From: a virus
Lineage: Duplodnaviria; Heunggongvirae; Uroviricota; Caudoviricetes
DNA length: 64,000 bases
Direction: 5' to 3' (one strand)
Virus record (IMG/VR): IMGVR_UViG_646311924_000007
Span: 33,898 to 97,897 of that record
Shown here: piece by piece, positions 3,068 through 56,106 of the stretch
How positions within the stretch are numbered: the stretch's first letter is position 1
How the letters are laid out: each line of letters begins with the position of its first letter
Notes under the pieces: generated by a model
Databases searched by the model: none
Seen by the model: only the letters and a program-made list of their open reading frames with translations
What the model was told of the DNA's origin: nothing
Made by a program: the position numbers and the translations under genes

Positions 3068-3949
3068 TCAGCGTCCTGAATCGGTATACCCCCATACAAA
3101 ACCAGGTTGGACACTAAGGTCTGATAGCTTTTCAATCCCCACCTGTGGAATGAAGTCGGTAGCCCGAAAGGGCACCCACAGACGGGTATACGCACCCTCT
3201 GTGGACTCCTTTGTATCCTGGTTTGGGCATTTGTGCGGCGGGAGACGAAGACGCATTTCGCCTTTATCGATGTAGCACGGTAAACCATGTTCGAGCTTTT
3301 CATGAGCCAGCCGGATGTGTGCCGCCAGCTTCATAAATTCAGTATCAATGGCCATCCGTTTGATCGTTTCATAACGACGCTCAGCCTGCTCTTCACGAGT
3401 ACCGCTAACATCGTTATAAAGTTCACACTGATAAGCGAATTCCCAAAAACGCAAATCAACGATCGCTTCTTTGAATTCCGCGTCGTCTTCAGGTGGCAAT
3501 GCTGCACGGCGCATCTCCAGCATTTCCATTGCCCAACCATCAAGCGGCACGATACGCCATTGATAAGGCACGCCCTCTACAGACACCTCAATATCGTCAA
3601 TGAACGGTTCCACTTCCAGGACCTGGATATCTTCAGCCAGAGCATTCATATCGCAATCGTAATAATGCTCTTTACCGCAATGTTTACAGGTGTAGGTGAA
3701 TGTCTCGACCGGTGTTTCACGGGAGCCAGTAAATATCCACCATAACGCGGTAATCCGGTCCTGCGCCGTCCATGTCAGGGGATCATATTTCGCGGGTTCA
3801 GCCAGCAAGGCTTTTAAATACGCCGTTGTCTGTTGTTCTTGTTCCTCCGGTGTTATCGAGTTGAAACGCATCGCATCAGCAATATTTGGCTGACGGAACT
3901 GGATCAATTCAGTTGGCCGCGATGGTAGCGGGAAAAGAGGTAAAAGCAT
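3068..3949 (-). CDS. hypothetical phage morphogenesis protein (293 aa)
   Basis: ORF co-oriented with and immediately upstream of sit in a tightly packed minus-strand array; contains a CxxC...C cluster (TYTCKHCGKEHYYDC). Confidence 0.5.
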   Translation of the reverse strand: MLLPLFPLPSRPTELIQFRQPNIADAMRFNSITPEEQEQQTTAYLKALLAEPAKYDPLTWTAQDRITALWWIFTGSRETPVETFTYTCKHCGKEHYYDCDMNALAEDIQVLEVEPFIDDIEVSVEGVPYQWRIVPLDGWAMEMLEMRRAALPPEDDAEFKEAIVDLRFWEFAYQCELYNDVSGTREEQAERRYETIKRMAIDTEFMKLAAHIRLAHEKLEHGLPCYIDKGEMRLRLPPHKCPNQDTKESTEGAYTRLWVPFRATDFIPQVGIEKLSDLSVQPGFVWGYTDSGR

Positions 3950-28094: not shown

Positions 28095-28169
28095 GATGGT
28101 GTAGCTCAGCGGTAGAGCAGTTGGCTGTTAACCAACTGGTCGGTAGTTCGAATCCACCCACCATCGCCA
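28095..28169 (+). tRNA. tRNA-Asn (anticodon GUU)
   Basis: Hand-folded cloverleaf: 7-bp acceptor GATGGTG/CACCATC, D-arm GCTCAGCGGTAGAGC, anticodon loop CUGUUAA, T-loop TTCGAAT, 3' CCA encoded; coordinates anchored to overlapping track ORFs. Confidence 0.8.
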
Positions 28170-28174
28170 CTTTA

Positions 28175-28261
28175 GGGGAGTTAGTCCGTAGGGGTAGCGG
28201 GGTAGACTGTAAATCTACTGTCATTGCGACTCGGGTGGTTCGACTCCATCACTCCCCACCA
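28175..28261 (+). tRNA. tRNA-like gene, class II, anticodon GUA (Tyr-like)
   Basis: Acceptor GGGGAGT/ACTCCCC, anticodon stem-loop GTAGA-CUGUAAA-TCTAC, 15-nt variable arm, T-arm GGTGG-TTCGACT-CCATC, CCA encoded; D-arm geometry irregular by 1 nt. Confidence 0.45.
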
Positions 28262-28265
28262 CATT

Positions 28266-28341
28266 GCCGATTTAGCTCAGTTGGTAGAGCAGTCGCTTTG
28301 TAAGCGAATGGTCAGCGGTTCGATCCCGTTAATCGGCACCA
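28266..28341 (+). tRNA. tRNA-Thr (anticodon UGU)
   Basis: Acceptor GCCGATT/AATCGGC, D-arm GCTCAGTTGGTAGAGC, anticodon loop UUUGUAA, T-loop TTCGATC, CCA encoded. Confidence 0.8.
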
Positions 28342-28345
28342 ACAT

Positions 28346-29076
28346 AACAGGTAAGAGCATTCTCCCTTATGGGGCCTGGCTTAAATGCATCGAGTGCTCT
28401 TACCGTTGTGATGAAGTGCAGATCTTAGAAGCAACCAGAAGATAAGCATCTGGCTTCACAACATAAACCGCAGGAACGACCAATAAACGGTAGTCCGTAT
28501 GGAGAACACCCCGTTGAGGAAGAGGCCTGGCCGGAACCGTAACCGGCGACTGGTAATGTGTGTAAATGGAGCGAAATATGTGGGCGTTTAACGGGATACG
28601 GGTTGTAACAGCGATTATTAACGGCGAACTTAAGTATTCACGTTTCGAGACAAATGAACGTGATGGGAAATGTATTGGTGTGCGGTTAGTAAGAGAATAC
28701 GCATAACAACTACAACGTTGAGAACACTGGCGTAACGGGGTCATATCCCAATCTACGAATAAATGTTGCGTTGCCGCGTGACAACCAGTGTTCTCAACAT
28801 TGTGGTGAATGCACAGGCTGATGTGCCGCAACTACAGTAGTGCGCGCTTTGCGGGGCTTGCTACAACCCTGTGTCGGAGTTCAGCACCGACCATCACAGT
28901 TTGATTCTCTGGCATGAGCATAACGCTGAAATAAGTCCAGTCTGGTGCGGTCTGATCACCCGCCGTTAGCTCCACGAAACGGAGCACGTAACAGGTAAGA
29001 GCATTCTCCTGTAACGGGTTCATATCCCAATCTACAGGTCCACCAAGAATGCTCTTTCCGTTGCGGTGAATGCGGC
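28346..29076 (+). repeat. ORF-free tract with three repeated hairpin units (candidate structured RNAs)
   Basis: Repeated blocks ACAGGTAAGAGCATTCTCC (x2), GTAACGGGKTCATATCCCAATCTAC (x2) and TTGYGRTGAAKGC (x3), each embedded in 10-18 bp inverted repeats; only implausible ORFs across it; coordinates +/-1. Confidence 0.45.
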
Positions 29077-29214
29077 TAAGCGCACGCGGGGAAATGGTTA
29101 TATCTGTCCATTATTTCTCCTTGTTTCCACGTCCACGGTGGATAACCAGCCAAAGGACACCGGGAGGAACCCGGCACCGCAGCTTTTTTATTCGTTAAAT
29201 AATGGAGTGAGAGG

Positions 29215-29451
29215 ATGCAGAACAATCCGAACAAATGTCGAACGCTATGGGTGCGGTTATATATTTATGCCGTCCTCTGTTTGATTGTGTCACTGGTTCT
29301 GTATGTTTGGCTTTTGCCAAATATGATCTCATCTAACAGCACAATACTTGTATTGTTGGGAGTCCTTCTCGCGCTCATTTACCCGGCTTTCGCAGTAGTC
29401 TTTTTTCGTGAAAAAACCAGGAAATTAATTAATGAAAAAAACGTTGATTAG
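29215..29451 (+). CDS. small integral membrane protein (78 aa)
   Basis: Two TM helices; overlaps the start of the downstream lipoprotein gene. Confidence 0.45.
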   Translation: MQNNPNKCRTLWVRLYIYAVLCLIVSLVLYVWLLPNMISSNSTILVLLGVLLALIYPAFAVVFFREKTRKLINEKNVD

Positions 29452-44448: not shown

Positions 44449-44955
44449 TTGAGTATTTTCAATAAACACGCACACCAGGAACGTCCGTATATCGTCATAG
44501 TCGATATTGATGGGACGATATCAGAGGCAACGGAAGACAGGCTGCATTTGCTTCCACCACCTGGCAAAGGTGCATTAACAGAGCACTGGAACGAGTTTAA
44601 CCTTGCCTGTGACACTGATGCTCCCATCACTCCAGTTATTGATATGGTGCGCCAGTTATTTAACGTTTACACGGTCTGGTTTGTAACCGGGCGCTGTGAG
44701 ATAGCCAGGGATAAAACACGAGCCTGGTTGCGTAAGCACGTAACAAACGGGGCTGAGCCTTTGCTATCTATGCGTCCTGCCACCGATGACAGAAATGACG
44801 GCCCAGCAAAGATTGCTCTCCTTAAGAAAATTGGTCTAAGTAAAATCGCGTTCGCGCTGGAAGATAAGATTGAAGTGGCGCGTGTTTTCAGGAGTCACGG
44901 CGTACTTACGTTAATGGTCAGGGAGTATGAAAACGCGCTTCTCCATCAACAGTAA
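44449..44955 (+). CDS. HAD-superfamily phosphatase-like protein (168 aa)
   Basis: N-terminal DxDGT motif (IVDIDGTI). Confidence 0.5.
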   Translation: MSIFNKHAHQERPYIVIVDIDGTISEATEDRLHLLPPPGKGALTEHWNEFNLACDTDAPITPVIDMVRQLFNVYTVWFVTGRCEIARDKTRAWLRKHVTNGAEPLLSMRPATDDRNDGPAKIALLKKIGLSKIAFALEDKIEVARVFRSHGVLTLMVREYENALLHQQ

Positions 44956-44971
44956 TTGCTCTAATAAATCT
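44955..44971 (+). promoter_or_regulatory. C1 operator-like 17-mer (ATTGCTCTAATAAATCT)
   Basis: 16/17 consensus; overlaps the stop codon of the HAD-like gene. Confidence 0.6.
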
Positions 44972-50831: not shown

Positions 50832-51206
50832 ATGATGACACTAAAACATTTTCTTGACCGCCCATTATGGGCGGCAGCCGCAGGCTATGACTTTAATTAT
50901 ATGGATTGCATGTCTTATACTGCCAATGCATACGACCATTCGTTCAGCCTGCTGTTTAATTCTTTAAGAATATTGCCGGAAACAGAAGTTGGAGAGCTTC
51001 ATTTATGGATATTGGGCTTTATCGCGGCTGGAGTTGGTATTGCCGTATGGCCTTTTATTTTCTGGCTGGTGGCTGTTGTAGTGTGGTTTAAGTGCAAGAC
51101 GTACCGGAAAAAGTATTTCTTAGGTGATGGAATGACTGATATTGCCAAAATGAACATTGAAAAATGGACTAAGGAATGTGAAAAGAAATGGCGCAAAAAG
51201 AAATGA
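50832..51206 (+). CDS. membrane protein (124 aa)
   Basis: Two TM helices (LWILGFIAAGVGIAVWPFIFWLVAVVVWF). Confidence 0.35.
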   Translation: MMTLKHFLDRPLWAAAAGYDFNYMDCMSYTANAYDHSFSLLFNSLRILPETEVGELHLWILGFIAAGVGIAVWPFIFWLVAVVVWFKCKTYRKKYFLGDGMTDIAKMNIEKWTKECEKKWRKKK

Positions 51207-51877
51207 CTACTCTAACGACAGCATACTTACAGCAATTGGTATTTTTTGCAGGCGAGGCTACTTGTCATCCTGACGCAAACTATTTATTGGAATTTGAGAG
51301 GTTAGCGTCACCCGGTATCGTTCTGGAACTGGCCCAACAGGTGCTGGCCTTGAGACAAAAAGAGCAACATGAAAGTAATACGTGTAGATTGAATTTTGAG
51401 CAGTGGCTGGAACAGCAACGCGGAAAAATCGATGTGGACTGTGGTTGTGTGTCCACTGAAACATTCATGCACTGGCTGCGGGTAGCTTACGAGGCTGGCA
51501 ACTATCCGGATATTCCGGATATTCCGGATAGTTCGGTGCCAGCGCCAGGAAAGGGCGTCACAGGTGAGCGTATCCGCATTAAGCCGCATGTTTATCGCGA
51601 ACTGGTTAACCGTCTCCACGATACAGCGATCAAGTGTGCAGGCACCCAGCAATTACGAGAAAGAATTAGCCGTGTTTTGGGCGACGTTATTACGCCAGAC
51701 CATCATAAACAAGCCGAGAAAAGTGACCTGGAAAGGTGTCACCTTGAGGCGGCATTAAACATTAAGCCGGGGCATACGCTTGGCATTATCGATGCTCTGT
51801 TGGTTCATAAGATGGCCAGGGCTTTATTGCCGCTGGTGGCTGAAAAGCATGAGGCGGACCATGCCAACGAAAGCTGA
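51188..51877 (+). CDS. hypothetical protein (229 aa)
   Basis: ORF; PDIPDIPD repeat. Confidence 0.35.
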   Translation: MAQKEMTTLTTAYLQQLVFFAGEATCHPDANYLLEFERLASPGIVLELAQQVLALRQKEQHESNTCRLNFEQWLEQQRGKIDVDCGCVSTETFMHWLRVAYEAGNYPDIPDIPDSSVPAPGKGVTGERIRIKPHVYRELVNRLHDTAIKCAGTQQLRERISRVLGDVITPDHHKQAEKSDLERCHLEAALNIKPGHTLGIIDALLVHKMARALLPLVAEKHEADHANES

Positions 51878-52145
51878 GTTACAGGCGCGCATAGATATTC
51901 TTGAAAAAGAGAATGCGAGTCTAAAAGGAATGCTGGCGCGGGCGGAAAGGGAATTATCAGGCAAATTATTGCCAGAAGAGCTGCCACCAGCAGATATACC
52001 TGATCGAGTGTCCTGGTGGATGAAGTATTTCCGTGCACCGTGGGAGGCGTTTTGGTGCTACGACCATCGCAGATGGTGTGATGAGCTTGATAGCAGTTTC
52101 CCCTATTTTGCGGAAGGGAACTCTTGCCCTGAATGTAGGAGTTAA
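51780..52145 (+). CDS. coiled-coil/Cys-motif small protein, paralogue family B (121 aa ORF)
   Basis: C-terminal W..F.C.DH..W.DELD.SFPYF.E..CP.CR motif shared with ORF 52145..52450. Confidence 0.4.
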   Translation: MALSMLCWFIRWPGLYCRWWLKSMRRTMPTKAELQARIDILEKENASLKGMLARAERELSGKLLPEELPPADIPDRVSWWMKYFRAPWEAFWCYDHRRWCDELDSSFPYFAEGNSCPECRS

Positions 52146-52450
52146 TGATGACCGGCGAGCTTTATTTTAAAATGGCACGGGAGCGGCGTGTGCATCTGGA
52201 TCGGATATTTCATCTCCAGAAGAGAGTAGAAGAACTGGAACGTCGTCTGAACTGTTATCCTGTTGATATGGTGTCTGCAATACCGCCGATTCCAATAGAA
52301 ATGCAGATCCGCCTATGGATGGAAGAATATGGAATGCCGTGGGAGATATTTTTCTGCTTCGACCATAAACAGTGGGTAGATGAGCTGGATAATAGTTTCC
52401 CATATTTCACAGAGAACACATGCCCAGTATGCAGGAAGAACGGAATATGA
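52145..52450 (+). CDS. coiled-coil/Cys-motif small protein, paralogue family B (101 aa)
   Basis: Same C-terminal motif (MPWEIFFCFDHKQWVDELDNSFPYFTENTCPVCR). Confidence 0.4.
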   Translation: MMTGELYFKMARERRVHLDRIFHLQKRVEELERRLNCYPVDMVSAIPPIPIEMQIRLWMEEYGMPWEIFFCFDHKQWVDELDNSFPYFTENTCPVCRKNGI

Positions 52451-52971
52451 CAAAATTTGGAAAGCTGGAAGCTCATTTGCTAACTCGTAACTACCGCCAT
52501 GATATACACCCATATAGACAGTGGATCGATGAAAGTGAAGGAGTAGTTACATTCCCTCTATACAGGTTTGATGGGATGTTGGCTGGGTATCAGACATATA
52601 GACCAGGTGCTCCTAAGCAGCATAGCAATCCGAAGATGGCCCGGTATTTCACGCGATCACATGGCAGACAGTTACTTTGGGGAACCTATCTTCCTTTAAA
52701 AGATGGCCCAATATGGATAACTGAGTCTATTTTTAAGAGCGCAGCTGTACACAACGCGGGCGGCAATTCGTGGGCGCTGTTAGGTTCGACTTTCTCCGCA
52801 GGATTACGCCGTCAACTTGCGATGCTGCCGTATGACTTTCGTGTAATAGGTGACAATGATGCGGCTGGTGAATTACTTGTGAAGTCTTTCGGAAAAGGTT
52901 TTGTGGCCCCGGATCTTGACGAGCTACAACCACATGAAGTGTCTCATTTGATTTTTAGCCATAGCCAATAA
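52420..52971 (+). CDS. small Toprim-like domain protein (183 aa)
   Basis: Conserved Glu (PIWITESIF) and DxD (RVIGDNDAAG) in Toprim-like spacing. Confidence 0.4.
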   Translation: MPSMQEERNMTKFGKLEAHLLTRNYRHDIHPYRQWIDESEGVVTFPLYRFDGMLAGYQTYRPGAPKQHSNPKMARYFTRSHGRQLLWGTYLPLKDGPIWITESIFKSAAVHNAGGNSWALLGSTFSAGLRRQLAMLPYDFRVIGDNDAAGELLVKSFGKGFVAPDLDELQPHEVSHLIFSHSQ

Positions 52972-53031
52972 GCATCTCTCCCCTTTGAGGCCACAATTAG
53001 TGGCCTTAAACAATGTGTTTTCTACCTCGAT

Positions 53032-53247
53032 TTAGCCTCTATTATCGTTTTGCATTTCTCTAATCCGGTTCAGAACTACTTCATGCTGGGCTTGGATAGC
53101 GGCTTTTTCGTTTTCAAGTCGGGCAATAGACATCTCTAATTCTTTGCTGTACCAGGCGAGTTGGGCCAGGTTCATCCGGTTGTGGTCGAGAGTTGGAGAC
53201 ACTTCGACGCGATCCCTTTCTTCCTGCTTTAATGAGAAGAGATTCAT
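53032..53247 (-). CDS. small coiled-coil protein (71 aa)
   Basis: ORF on opposite strand to the early array. Confidence 0.35.
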   Translation of the reverse strand: MNLFSLKQEERDRVEVSPTLDHNRMNLAQLAWYSKELEMSIARLENEKAAIQAQHEVVLNRIREMQNDNRG

Positions 53248-53277
53248 CTCATCCCTTGAGGAAAATTCAGCAACAAT

Positions 53278-53613
53278 TTATTGTTGATGATCCGGTCGCT
53301 GCGGCATCCTCGCCAGTATAAATGGCGGTTCTTTTGAAAACATGAATGTCGGTTCAGACCGTGTTTTTACCCAGCTTGCCTGCTGTCTTTCGGCAAGTTC
53401 ACAGGCTTCATCATAGTTATTTGCCAAACCAAGCACGGATGGACGGTCCCACGCGCCACCATTCAGACAATAAACAACAATTTTCCCGTCATGTTCTGTA
53501 ACCCCATAGGGATGGTCCCACCAGGCGTCCAGCTGAGCTTTAGAGCGTTTCTCGTTAGGAGTGCAGTCAAAATTTTTGGGCAATACAGGATCGAGAGGAA
53601 TGCGATTAGGCAT
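53278..53613 (-). CDS. hypothetical protein (111 aa)
   Basis: ORF; Trp-rich. Confidence 0.35.
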   Translation of the reverse strand: MPNRIPLDPVLPKNFDCTPNEKRSKAQLDAWWDHPYGVTEHDGKIVVYCLNGGAWDRPSVLGLANNYDEACELAERQQASWVKTRSEPTFMFSKEPPFILARMPQRPDHQQ

Positions 53614-53787: not shown

Positions 53788-54177
53788 ATGGGTTTCCCTT
53801 CTCCTGCGGCGGATTATGTTGAAAGCCGAATTTCTCTTGATCAGCAGATAATTAGACATCCATCAGCAACCTACTTCATGCGGGCAGCTGATAGCCATCA
53901 CCGTGAGGGAATATTGCAGGGTGCTTTGCTGGTGGTTGATTCCTCGCTTACTCCGGTTGATGGTTCTCTGCTTGTGTGCGCTATGGAGGGTGAATATCGC
54001 ATAAAGAGATACAGGAAGTATCCGCGCCAGCACCTGGAGGATTTAAGCACCGGGAAGAAAGAGGCGTTACCAGTAGATGACGATGGTTACACGGGTAGTA
54101 ATGCTGTTTTTGGTGTGATCACTCATGTCATCAATGATGCCCGAAGTGGGGAATTTGATGATTGTCCGGTGATTTAA
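53788..54177 (+). CDS. humD: UmuD'-like protein HumD
   Basis: GFPSPAADYVESRISLDQQIIRHPSATYF closely matches the UmuD N-core; C-terminal VFGVITHVIN. Confidence 0.8.
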   Translation: MGFPSPAADYVESRISLDQQIIRHPSATYFMRAADSHHREGILQGALLVVDSSLTPVDGSLLVCAMEGEYRIKRYRKYPRQHLEDLSTGKKEALPVDDDGYTGSNAVFGVITHVINDARSGEFDDCPVI

Positions 54178-54249
54178 GCTGCAAAGTGCTGGTGCTTTAT
54201 GCCTGTGAAGTTTATAATTGTGTACACATAACGAGTACACGAGGTGTTT

Positions 54250-54471
54250 ATGCAATCCATTAACTTCCGTACCGCGCGTGGCAACCTTTCTGAAGTGCTC
54301 AACAATGTTGAAGCCGGGGAAGAGGTTGAAATCACCCGCAGAGGCCGTGAGCCAGCAGTAATTGTCAGCAAGGCTACTTTCGAAGCCTACAAAAAAGCGG
54401 CGCTGGATGCTGAATTTGCATCCCTGTTTGACACCCTGGACTCCACCAACAAGGAACTGGTTAACCGATAA
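54250..54471 (+). CDS. phd: Phd antitoxin (73 aa)
   Basis: Sequence [40 protein letters not shown]... is P1 Phd as I recall it; stop overlaps doc start (TAATG). Confidence 0.9.
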
Positions 54472-54851
54472 TGAGGCATATATCACCGGAAGAACTTATT
54501 GCGCTTCATGATGCGAATATAAACCGCTACGGCGGCCTGCCGGGAATGTCAGATCCGGGTAGGGCAGAGGCCATTATCGGGAGAGTTCAGGCCAGAGTTG
54601 CCTACGAAGAGATCACCGACCTTTTCGAAGTCTCCGCCACCTACCTGGTGGCTACAGCGAGAGGGCATATATTCAATGATGCCAATAAGCGTACCGCGCT
54701 AAACAGTGCGCTGTTATTTCTACGCCGTAACGGGGTGCAGGTATTTGATTCACCTGAACTGGCAGACCTTACCGTAGGGGCTGCGACCGGAGAGATATCT
54801 GTATCTTCTGTCGCCGACACGTTACGTAGATTGTATGGTTCCGCGGAGTAG
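54471..54851 (+). CDS. doc: Doc toxin (Fic-fold kinase, 126 aa)
   Basis: 126 aa, HxFx(D/N)(A/G)NKR-type motif ([11 protein letters not shown]). Confidence 0.9.
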
Positions 54852-55062: not shown

Positions 55063-56106
55063 GTGAAAGCCGTAATTACTCCCTTTGTACAGAAAGAGCT
55101 TGGCCTCGCCACGTTCAAAGTGGATCAGGAGGTCAGAAAGCTGGTGGAGGCTGGCCGTAAATTTATTATGGAGCCGGTGCCGCGTGAGTTAATCGAGCAC
55201 ATGGAAGACGGCCTCGTTGTTACCGAGCAAACCATGGCAACAAATGAGGCGTTGCAGCCGTTTTTTAACAGCGATGAACTGTTTCGCCGTATTGGTGGAA
55301 TTGACGCGCTGGTGGCGTGGTTGCGCAGGAAAGAGGGGCAATGCCAGGCCGCAGATCGTAGCTGGTGTGACAACCATATTGTCCACGCAGAACGAGACAA
55401 TAGCGCGGTGTTGTTGTGCTGGCATCACGATAACCATTACCGGATGCGTGGTTTTAATGAGCTGAAAGAAACGCTGCATAATAATCGCGTTAACTGGATA
55501 CTGGATGTCGCCCGTCAGGAAATGGGGCTTTCAGATGGCCATGATTTAAGTATTCAGGAACTGTGCTGGTGGGCTTTCATGCGCAACATGATGCACCTGA
55601 TGCCGGAAGAAGTTTGCCGTATATCAATAAATAAGATGAAAGCCGCAACGCAGGATAGCGGACCTCTGAAAGAGGCGGATATTCGCCCGTATGACGATCG
55701 CGCTACAGCATATGTTCAGATGATGGAAGAACGCGCCGCGCCGATGCGTGCAAAAGTATGCCCTGTGGATGTTGACTCCGACCCAGGTATGGCGCATTTC
55801 AAGATACCAAAACTTCAATCGCTAAAATTACCTGAGTACATGGACTTTGTTGCTTCCCGTCCATGCTGTGGGTGTGGAGCGGCGGGAGCTGGCGCTCACA
55901 TTACGCCTTATATCGTTCGTCATAGTCGATTATGCGCGCATGACATTTACGCAATTCCTCTGTGCCAGTCATGCCAGCGTGATATTGAGCGTGACCGCGA
56001 TAATTGGGAGAAGACGCACGGTAGGCTGGCGATGCATCAACGATTGTTCTTTGATTACGCGCTTGGAGTCGGCGCTATCACAAGTCACTCGTCGAGCGTT
56101 AGATAA
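55063..56106 (+). CDS. hypothetical protein with Cys/His clusters (347 aa)
   Basis: ORF; multiple CxxC/HxxH-like clusters; followed by an operator-like site. Confidence 0.45.

Follow-up and report, generated by a model that had tools for sequence, protein, structure and literature searches.

A predicted primase core and two putative zinc-binding paralogues as mosaic cargo of a P1-like phage-plasmid

Locus and gene content

We investigated three adjacent genes in a 64,000-nucleotide (nt) stretch of phage DNA (IMG/VR record IMGVR_UViG_646311924_000007, positions 33,898 to 97,897), called the window in the following. All positions are those of the whole window. A sequence-only reading had described the genes as two small paralogues with an N-terminal coiled coil and a C-terminal cysteine motif, followed by a stand-alone Toprim-like protein, which together could form a nucleic-acid-targeting module. 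The three open reading frames (ORFs) are present on the plus strand, with corrected start coordinates for ORF1 and ORF3:

51861..52145, plus strand: ORF1, 94 amino acids (aa); coiled-coil helix and putative C-terminal CxxH...CxxC zinc-binding domain; phrog_3797.
52145..52450, plus strand: ORF2, 101 aa; ORF1 paralogue that belongs to a different subfamily; N-terminus ELYFKMARERR; putative zinc motif C71, H74, C93, C96.
52447..52971, plus strand: ORF3, 174 aa; predicted DnaG/T7 gp4-type primase RNA-polymerase core with motifs II-VI (E93, D136, D138, D156); member of the T5p074/phrog_849 family.

For ORF1, the true start is most likely the ATG at 51861 and not at 51780, since both the PHROG profile and the 94-aa homologues begin with MPTKAEL and a GAGG is located 7 nt upstream. 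For ORF3, it is most likely the ATG at 52447, since its homologues, among them the 99%-identical P0001 and the coding sequence (CDS) of PhiR41_1, are 174 aa long. ORF1 and ORF2 overlap by 1 nt (TAATG), ORF2 and ORF3 by 4 nt (ATGA).

The window is a P1-like phage-plasmid. That is, it carries humD (53788-54177), phd (54244-54471), doc (54471-54851) and pdcB (55063-56106) downstream of the locus and pmgS and pap on its upstream side, its megablast matches are all P1-like phages (including P1, P7, D6, RCS47 and SJ46), and it contains 15 matches to the C1-operator consensus of P1 where 0.35 are expected. ORF1-ORF3 are placed between pmgT/U/V-like genes and lxr. The respective region 8 (pmgT...hot, lxr, humD) is one of eight hypervariable regions in P1-like phage-plasmids (PMC9603915), and the P1 genes of the same locus (pmgT/U/V, upfN/O, hot, lxr) are non-essential according to CRISPR interference (PMC10695390).

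ORF3 resembles a primase core without zinc or helicase domains

Neither ORF3 nor ORF1 or ORF2 has a significant match in Pfam, NCBIfam or PADLOC. A single-sequence search of the PDB with ORF3 was likewise without result, such that its relatives were found only via PHROG, family-profile and fold searches. ORF3 matches the phrog_849 'DNA primase' profile with an E-value of 3.5e-53 (profile positions 145-333 of 435). When compared to the PDB, the profile of its family matches DnaG catalytic cores with an alignment over motifs II-V. For the DnaG proteins of S. aureus and E. coli, this alignment covers FPL..G...GY and PK..N.P..RYF...WG, i.e., motifs II/III from the N-terminal subdomain with its basic ridge.

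The AlphaFold2 (AF2) model of ORF3 (predicted local distance difference test score, pLDDT, of 90) points in the same direction. In a Foldseek comparison with the PDB, ranks 1-38 are without exception catalytic domains of DnaG, T7 gp4 or T4 gp61 (probability 1.00). These matches show template modelling (TM) scores to the query of 0.4-0.68 over 160-240 columns and cover both the N-terminal subdomain and the Toprim domain. RNase M5 is found below these 38 primases and is matched in the Toprim half only (97-106 columns, E 1.4e-2 to 3.6e-2).

With the RNA-polymerase domains of DnaG, T7 gp4 and T4 gp61 (PDB 1DDE, 1EQN, 4E2K, 1NUI, 8DVF), ORF3 thus shares the two-subdomain fold, motifs II-VI, the catalytic Glu, the DxD and the motif VI Asp. 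Its size is close to that of the minimal T7 core. It differs from them by a sequence identity of only 14-21%, by a motif IV Lys with a putatively compensating motif VI Asp, and by the lack of a zinc-binding, helicase-binding or helicase domain. RNase M5 and other small Toprim proteins (PDB 6Z2B, 2FCJ; fold ranks 39-49) are, like ORF3, stand-alone proteins of similar size with a DnaG-like Toprim domain, and they provide a precedent for a Toprim protein that acts on RNA. Here, only the Toprim half of about 100 residues aligns (E 1e-2 to 1e-1), and ORF3 has the primase N-terminal subdomain in place of the C-terminal RNA-binding domain of RNase M5.

The conserved Glu and the DxD motif had already been noted from the sequence alone, and both hold across the family: E93 (motif IV) as well as D136 and D138 (motif V) are invariant in 12 homologues. 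Among 160 family representatives, E93 is found in 159, D136 in 146, D138 in 144, the motif VI D156 in 145, K57 in 141 and Y67 in all 160. The Toprim-like assignment of ORF3 was thereby borne out by profile and structure searches and could be sharpened to a primase-type rather than an OLD-type Toprim domain.

No zinc-binding domain was identified in ORF3, i.e., there is no Cys/His motif and motif II begins already near residue 33. The same holds family-wide, since only 1 of 13 N-terminally extended members has Cys motifs, which are unrelated. A helicase-interaction domain is missing as well, because ORF3 ends about 15 residues past motif VI, and the window has no adjacent helicase gene. Sequence and fold model together thus predict ORF3 to be a complete catalytic core of a DnaG/T7 gp4-type primase that has neither a zinc-binding nor a helicase-binding domain.

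One position of the active site deviates from the canonical pattern. The motif IV Asp of EGxxD is replaced by Lys in ORF3 (residue 97, ~52735-52737) and in 42 of the 160 representatives. This exchange co-varies with a motif VI Gly-to-Asp exchange (residue 158, ~52918-52920), which is present in 41/42 representatives with the Lys compared to 9/118 of the others (Fisher test, p-value 4e-28, which ignores phylogeny). The same K97/D158 variant is encoded by T5, a Kagunavirus, pf16 and Cronobacter phage 009. Judged from these alignments, the family would divide into two active-site subtypes defined by residues 97 and 158, and the K97/D158 pairing looks like a compensated, maintained active site.

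ORF1 and ORF2 are paralogues with a putative zinc-binding domain

ORF1 and ORF2 share 52% identity over their C-terminal 54 aa (BLASTP E 1e-21), and both match phrog_3797 (E 1.7e-57 and 1.6e-36, respectively). Given both, their paralogy is far beyond chance. The full profile (positions 1-94 of 94) is covered by residues 28-121 of ORF1, when numbered from the start at 51780, and by residues 18-98 of ORF2. Members of phrog_3797, i.e., hypothetical proteins of enterobacterial prophages, are 94-115 aa long and occur in Escherichia, Salmonella, Pantoea, Erwinia, Sodalis and Citrobacter. ORF1 and ORF2 are both full-length members. The window differs from the known examples in that two subfamily members are found in tandem.

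Within this family, we use the residue numbers of ORF2. An alignment of 13 close relatives shows C71, H74, C93 and C96 to be invariant, along with W58, PWE, W77, ELD and S.PY. When extended to 40 sequences, P65, W66, E67, C71 and W77 remain invariant, while C93, C96 and the ELD..SFPY motif are found in at least 90%. One subfamily has a Cys instead of H74 (CPxC...CVC-KC), a swap that is typical of what would be expected for a zinc ligand. The AF2 model of ORF2 (pLDDT 86) shows a long helix (residues 2-37), which is followed by a small domain of mostly helical structure; there, CxxH is part of a short hairpin and CxxC is located at a helix start. Paralogy, motif conservation and the helix of the model thus agree with the coiled coil and C-terminal Cys motif described earlier. 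ORF1 and ORF2 are probably dimers of coiled-coil proteins with a small zinc-binding domain. Their most likely role is that of an adaptor or binder for a macromolecule of host or phage.

Two other annotations of ORF1 were considered and rejected. ORF1 is not the P1 protein PmgV (MRVADHIK...KLNANES, gp097), which is unrelated; the match to P1 stops at 51842, i.e., it concerns the upstream ORF. Neither is ORF1 a Phd antitoxin, because both ORF1 and ORF2 are without a PF02604 (PhdYeFM_antitox) match at E<=1, and the true phd is the gene at 54244-54471. NCBI records repeatedly apply the name 'antitoxin PHD' to proteins of the ORF1/2 family that lack a Phd domain. In at least one prophage (L095, 4001-4988), a gene of this family directly precedes a real PhdYeFM/Fic pair, and the misnomer has probably spread from such neighbouring genes.

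Natural chimeras are found as well: P0033 and P0034 combine an ORF1-type N-terminus with an ORF2-type C-terminus (...PWEIFFCFDH...). This is the product to be expected if recombination between tandem paralogues deletes the interval in between.

The three genes are not a conserved module

We assessed the co-occurrence of the three genes within 79 IMG/VR loci, namely 19 near-identical (97-100% ORF3 protein identity) and 60 distant ones. ORF1 and ORF2 are found upstream of ORF3 in 11 of the near-identical loci. Two further loci have a single ORF1/2-type gene and an intervening gene, while 6/19 have neither. None of the 60 loci with a distant ORF3 homologue has an ORF1/2-type gene, and the same is observed for the Logan/ENA contexts of P0004, P0007, P0009 and P0017.

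The flanks of ORF3 also indicate independent exchange. In blastn comparisons, ORF3 forms a discrete cassette together with the following hairpin:

52984..53010, no strand assigned: GC-rich hairpin TTTGAGGCCAC-AATTA-GTGGCCTTAAA with an 11-bp stem, between the convergent ORF3 and lxr.

Its left end lies 1 nt or 15 nt ahead of the ATG, its right end at ~53023-53085. Behind other left flanks that are without ORF1/ORF2, e.g., EaA-like genes in PhiR41_1, the cassette recurs with an identity of 93-98%. The hairpin is likely a bidirectional terminator that moves with ORF3. On the other side, the similarity of RCS47 and D6 to the window stops at the end of ORF1. ORF2-type genes are also found in integrase-bearing prophages beside phd/Fic, hot-like or umuC genes, where the vicinity lacks a primase core. 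The identical three-gene block is present in 22 of 5,426 complete E. coli genomes and, among the matches listed, is located on plasmids of ~92-100 kb.

A three-gene module is therefore not supported: ORF3 occurs without ORF1/2, the distant loci have no ORF1/2-type gene, and ORF1/2-type genes occur without ORF3. That is, ORF1-ORF3 are not a conserved module and are instead a lineage-specific juxtaposition in a recombination hot spot. Of the earlier interpretation, the Toprim reading of ORF3 stands, while the nucleic-acid-targeting module does not survive the co-occurrence data, given the 6/19 near-identical and 60/60 distant loci that lack an ORF1/2-type gene.

Related traces are found in other P1-like genomes. 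P1 itself has upfM-upfN-upfO-hot in the slot of ORF1-ORF3. Its reference (NC_005856, ~3216-3266 of the extracted locus L002, directly after pmgV) keeps just the first 8 codons of an ORF1-type gene (MPTKAELQ) and then diverges; this remnant is the scar of a replacement at the recombination junction. In the closest P1 relative in GenBank (MH422554, L001 4441-4668), we observe a truncated ORF3 remnant that corresponds to positions 52759-53023 of the window (90%), with no ORF1/ORF2.

The T5p074/phrog_849 family

An exhaustive profile search for relatives of ORF3 provided 1,638 representative clusters with a threshold of E<=1e-3. The stricter E<=1e-30 leaves 180, mostly of 160-190 aa. Most aligned representatives are short, i.e., 136/160 have at most 210 aa (median 179 aa). 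Based on tblastn, homologues are encoded in 490 GenBank phage records, with T5-like phages, Guernseyvirinae, jumbo phages of Erwinia and Serratia, and phages of Vibrio, Proteus, Pseudomonas and Stenotrophomonas among their carriers. Identical copies of ORF3 are already called 'toprim domain-containing protein' in RefSeq/PGAP, where PGAP sometimes labels ORF1 'antitoxin PHD'. ORF3 is a new member of a known family, while ORF1 and ORF2 are members of an uncurated, putatively zinc-binding family that has no Pfam family.

The T5 homologue T5p074 ('DNA primase-like protein') shows 43% identity to ORF3 over residues 6-169 (~94% of ORF3; tblastn E 4e-24). Both have the same length (172-174 aa), the same stand-alone form and the same signature E[GS]xFK...DxDE. 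Their contexts differ: T5 is virulent, and its T5p074 gene (AY734508, L009 3989-4507) lies within the tRNA array, 24 nt ahead of tRNA-Ser. ORF3, in contrast, closes a putative early accessory operon in a phage-plasmid that is temperate, and the tRNA genes of the window are 22 kb away. For replication, T5 is annotated with another primase (pri, T5.121), which is encoded beside a DnaB-like helicase and a polymerase. Within a Kagunavirus, the homologue follows an SF2 helicase in the replication module, and the same phage also encodes the helicase-primase gp55. In both phages checked, the T5p074-family protein is thus extra to another annotated primase.

Other contexts include RNA-related genes. 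In Vibrio phage F89 (L010 2631-4465), the homologue overlaps a tRNA nucleotidyltransferase gene, and in Erwinia phage Deimos-Minion (L091 3908-5767) it precedes an RtcB gene. The latter homologue is annotated as two CDSs and is matched in two pieces, i.e., it may be interrupted. In candidate metagenomic fusions, the core stands before or behind a PolyA_pol/CCA-type domain (P0084, P0138) and in one case is joined to a HAD phosphatase; further candidate fusions of family members concern Arr-like ADP-ribosyltransferase, GNAT and Mom domains. The contexts from pEa_SNUABM_30, DLP_6, pf16 and Cronobacter phage 009 show hypothetical neighbours only and no recurrent partner.

Operon structure and neighbouring genes

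The further features of the locus are the following.

44955..44971, plus strand: C1 repressor operator ATTGCTCTAATAAATCT, 1 mismatch to the consensus, directly after a pap-like gene.
51188..51877, plus strand: upstream neighbour, 229 aa, phrog_21459; context gene that overlaps ORF1 by 17 nt.
53032..53613, minus strand: lxr homologue (LexA-regulated function) that delimits the variable segment on its right side; premature in-frame stop at codon 112.

The C1 operator directly adjoins the stop codon of the pap-like ORF (44449-44955). P1 shows the same arrangement, where pap ends at 84293 and OpmgT covers 84293-84309, such that the operator at 44955-44971 is positionally equivalent to P1 OpmgT/Op88. 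From there, about 17 ORFs follow on the same strand without interruption up to ORF3 and its hairpin. We infer that the operator marks the start of an early accessory operon of ~8 kb that ends with ORF1-ORF3. The run includes EaA/DUF551-like proteins, proteins of phrog_60, 625, 1258 and 2638, and other mosaic 'ea'-type genes. In P1, the respective pmgT-U-V / upfMNO / hot stretch is only ~2.5 kb long, and hot (a Pol III theta homologue) is absent behind the OpmgT-like operator in the ~8-kb segment of the window.

The C-terminal part of the upstream neighbour resembles the pmgT/pmgU region of P1 (window 51487-51842, 93%). Its product ends with ...ADHANES, compared to ...KLNANES for P1 PmgV.

Beyond the hairpin, codon 112 of lxr is a stop in the window (PDHQQ*IVAEF) and encodes Glu in P1 (PDHQQEIVAEF). 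The broken gene is thus seen as two ORFs of 111 and 71 aa that match the two halves of phrog_6164.

Finally, the window contains four tRNA genes (28095-28341 and 30287-30362), i.e., Asn-GTT, Tyr-GTA, Thr-TGT and one with CAT anticodon of the Met/Ile2 type. The P1 reference has three tRNAs (Asn, Thr, Ile), such that the tRNA-Tyr of the window would be extra.

Interpretation and alternatives

We consider it about an even bet that each of the three genes is mosaic cargo in its own right and that they form no functional triad, with ORF3 being an accessory primase core and ORF1/ORF2 zinc adaptors. Under this reading, they would be the last three genes of an expanded, C1-repressed accessory operon in hypervariable region 8. 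The predicted catalytically intact ORF3 would perform divalent-metal-dependent nucleotidyl transfer, i.e., make short RNA on single-stranded nucleic acid, presumably with no sequence-specific template recognition given that it has no zinc domain. It would be a dispensable accessory factor in lytic development and would not take the place of the replicative primase; P1 itself depends on the DnaG of its host along with Ban. ORF1 and ORF2 would bind a host or phage macromolecule.

Several observations weigh against this reading or parts of it. T7 gp4 without its zinc motif loses template-directed primer synthesis, which makes priming by ORF3 alone uncertain. The family's links to tRNA arrays, CCA-adding enzymes and RtcB in several lineages fit an RNA-directed role better. 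Furthermore, ORF1-ORF2-ORF3 travel together with translational coupling in 11/19 near-identical loci and may thus interact in a lineage-specific way. It is the operator position, and nothing else, that suggests an early expression of ORF1-ORF3 when C1 repression is lifted. Finally, the literature on pmgV, on Toprim along with tRNA nucleotidyltransferase and on stand-alone DnaG-like phage proteins provided no functional study of either family.

For the locus, the result is mostly a clarification, i.e., ORF1-ORF3 are mosaic cargo of the ordinary kind in a hypervariable region that was already known. Of wider interest are the at least 1,600 clusters of stand-alone primase cores without zinc finger across T5-like phages, Guernseyvirinae, jumbo and temperate phages. 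In T5 and a Kagunavirus, such a core is redundant given another annotated primase, and the family recurs near tRNA and RNA-repair genes. The question worth pursuing is the role of such accessory cores in so many phages. A P1-like prophage with ORF3, which is accessible to genetics in E. coli K-12-type hosts, would be a convenient handle for it. ORF1/2 add a second uncharacterised, putatively zinc-binding family with no Pfam entry.

The main alternative, which we regard as possible although rather unlikely, is an RNA- or tRNA-directed enzyme. Here, the core of the T5p074 family would act on tRNA or other RNA (e.g., 3'-trailer processing, repair, or extension together with a CCA-adding enzyme or RtcB) instead of DNA priming, and ORF3 would bring an RNA activity into a P1-like phage with four tRNA genes (28095-30362). 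In agreement, T5p074 resides in the T5 tRNA array, about 25 T5-like loci are arranged alike, and four other contigs (L030, L079, L088, L089) have tRNAs 38-702 nt from the homologue. The F89 overlap, the Deimos-Minion neighbour, the candidate CCA-type fusions in both orders and the other annotated primase of T5 and the Kagunavirus also fit. On the other hand, a tRNA gene within 5 kb is lacking at most loci, among them all P1-like, Kagunavirus, pf16, DLP_6 and Cronobacter contexts, and in large phages, tRNA arrays harbour accessory genes in general. The long fusions may result from read-through in gene calling, the neighbourhood counts ignore phylogeny, and the N-terminal subdomain retains the DnaG motif II/III residues.

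A broader version of this idea, which we consider clearly unlikely, is that the T5p074 family as a whole is no DNA primase. Its members would be conserved phage accessory enzymes in which a DnaG core without zinc finger was repurposed for RNA, e.g., to process, extend or repair the 3' ends of tRNAs in conjunction with a CCA-adding enzyme or RtcB. This would explain the presence of another annotated primase in the two phages checked as well as the tRNA-array position or candidate CCA-enzyme fusions in several lineages.

It is improbable that ORF3 is a Toprim nuclease of a conflict system, i.e., an OLD/Gabija/PARIS-like defence or prophage anti-defence nuclease. Its position in the hypervariable accessory region of a phage-plasmid, near phd-doc and SOS genes, would suit such a role, as would the candidate fusions of some family members to ADP-ribosyltransferase-like, GNAT and Mom domains, which are typical of conflict systems. 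However, there is no PADLOC match at E<=1 and no ATPase partner or neighbour in the window, no OLD structure is among the 50 fold matches listed, and both fold and sequence are primase-type with the N-terminal RNA-polymerase-domain (RPD) subdomain, while RNase M5 and the small Toprim proteins match the Toprim half only (E 1e-2 or weaker). In addition, the family occurs mainly in phages that are virulent. Given the PADLOC result and the primase-type fold, we reject a nuclease of the OLD or defence type.

About as improbable is a split primase, in which ORF3 would obtain its missing zinc-binding, template-reading module in trans from the CxxH...CxxC domain of ORF1/ORF2 and the coiled coils would oligomerise the complex. 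ORF1/ORF2 do show the CxxH...CxxC ligand pattern of a primase-type zinc ribbon, and the zinc fingers of DnaG have this same arrangement (CHC2). The zinc domain of T7 and DnaG primases can act in trans, and ORF1-ORF3 are translationally coupled. Jumbo phages are reported to combine a DnaG-like Toprim primase with a primase-type zinc ribbon encoded on its own (Iyer et al. 2021, PMC7824862), which resembles ORF1-ORF3 in that a DnaG-type catalytic protein without zinc finger is found beside small Cys/His zinc proteins. The split-primase explanation nevertheless fails in the profile, predicted-fold and co-occurrence comparisons: the putative zinc domain of ORF1/ORF2 resembles primase zinc ribbons (zf-CHC2 / Prim_Zn_Ribbon) neither in sequence nor in predicted fold, and the pairing is not conserved, which distinguishes ORF1-ORF3 from the jumbo-phage systems.

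Hardly credible is an inactive remnant, i.e., ORF3 as the decaying, functionless fragment of a full-length primase, since the missing two of three canonical primase domains, the truncated copy in MH422554 and the disrupted adjoining lxr are set against a stand-alone form of 165-190 aa that is the norm across at least 1600 representative clusters, catalytic residues that are 90-99% conserved with the putatively compensatory K97/D158 pair, and a gene that is 93-100% conserved across different contexts.

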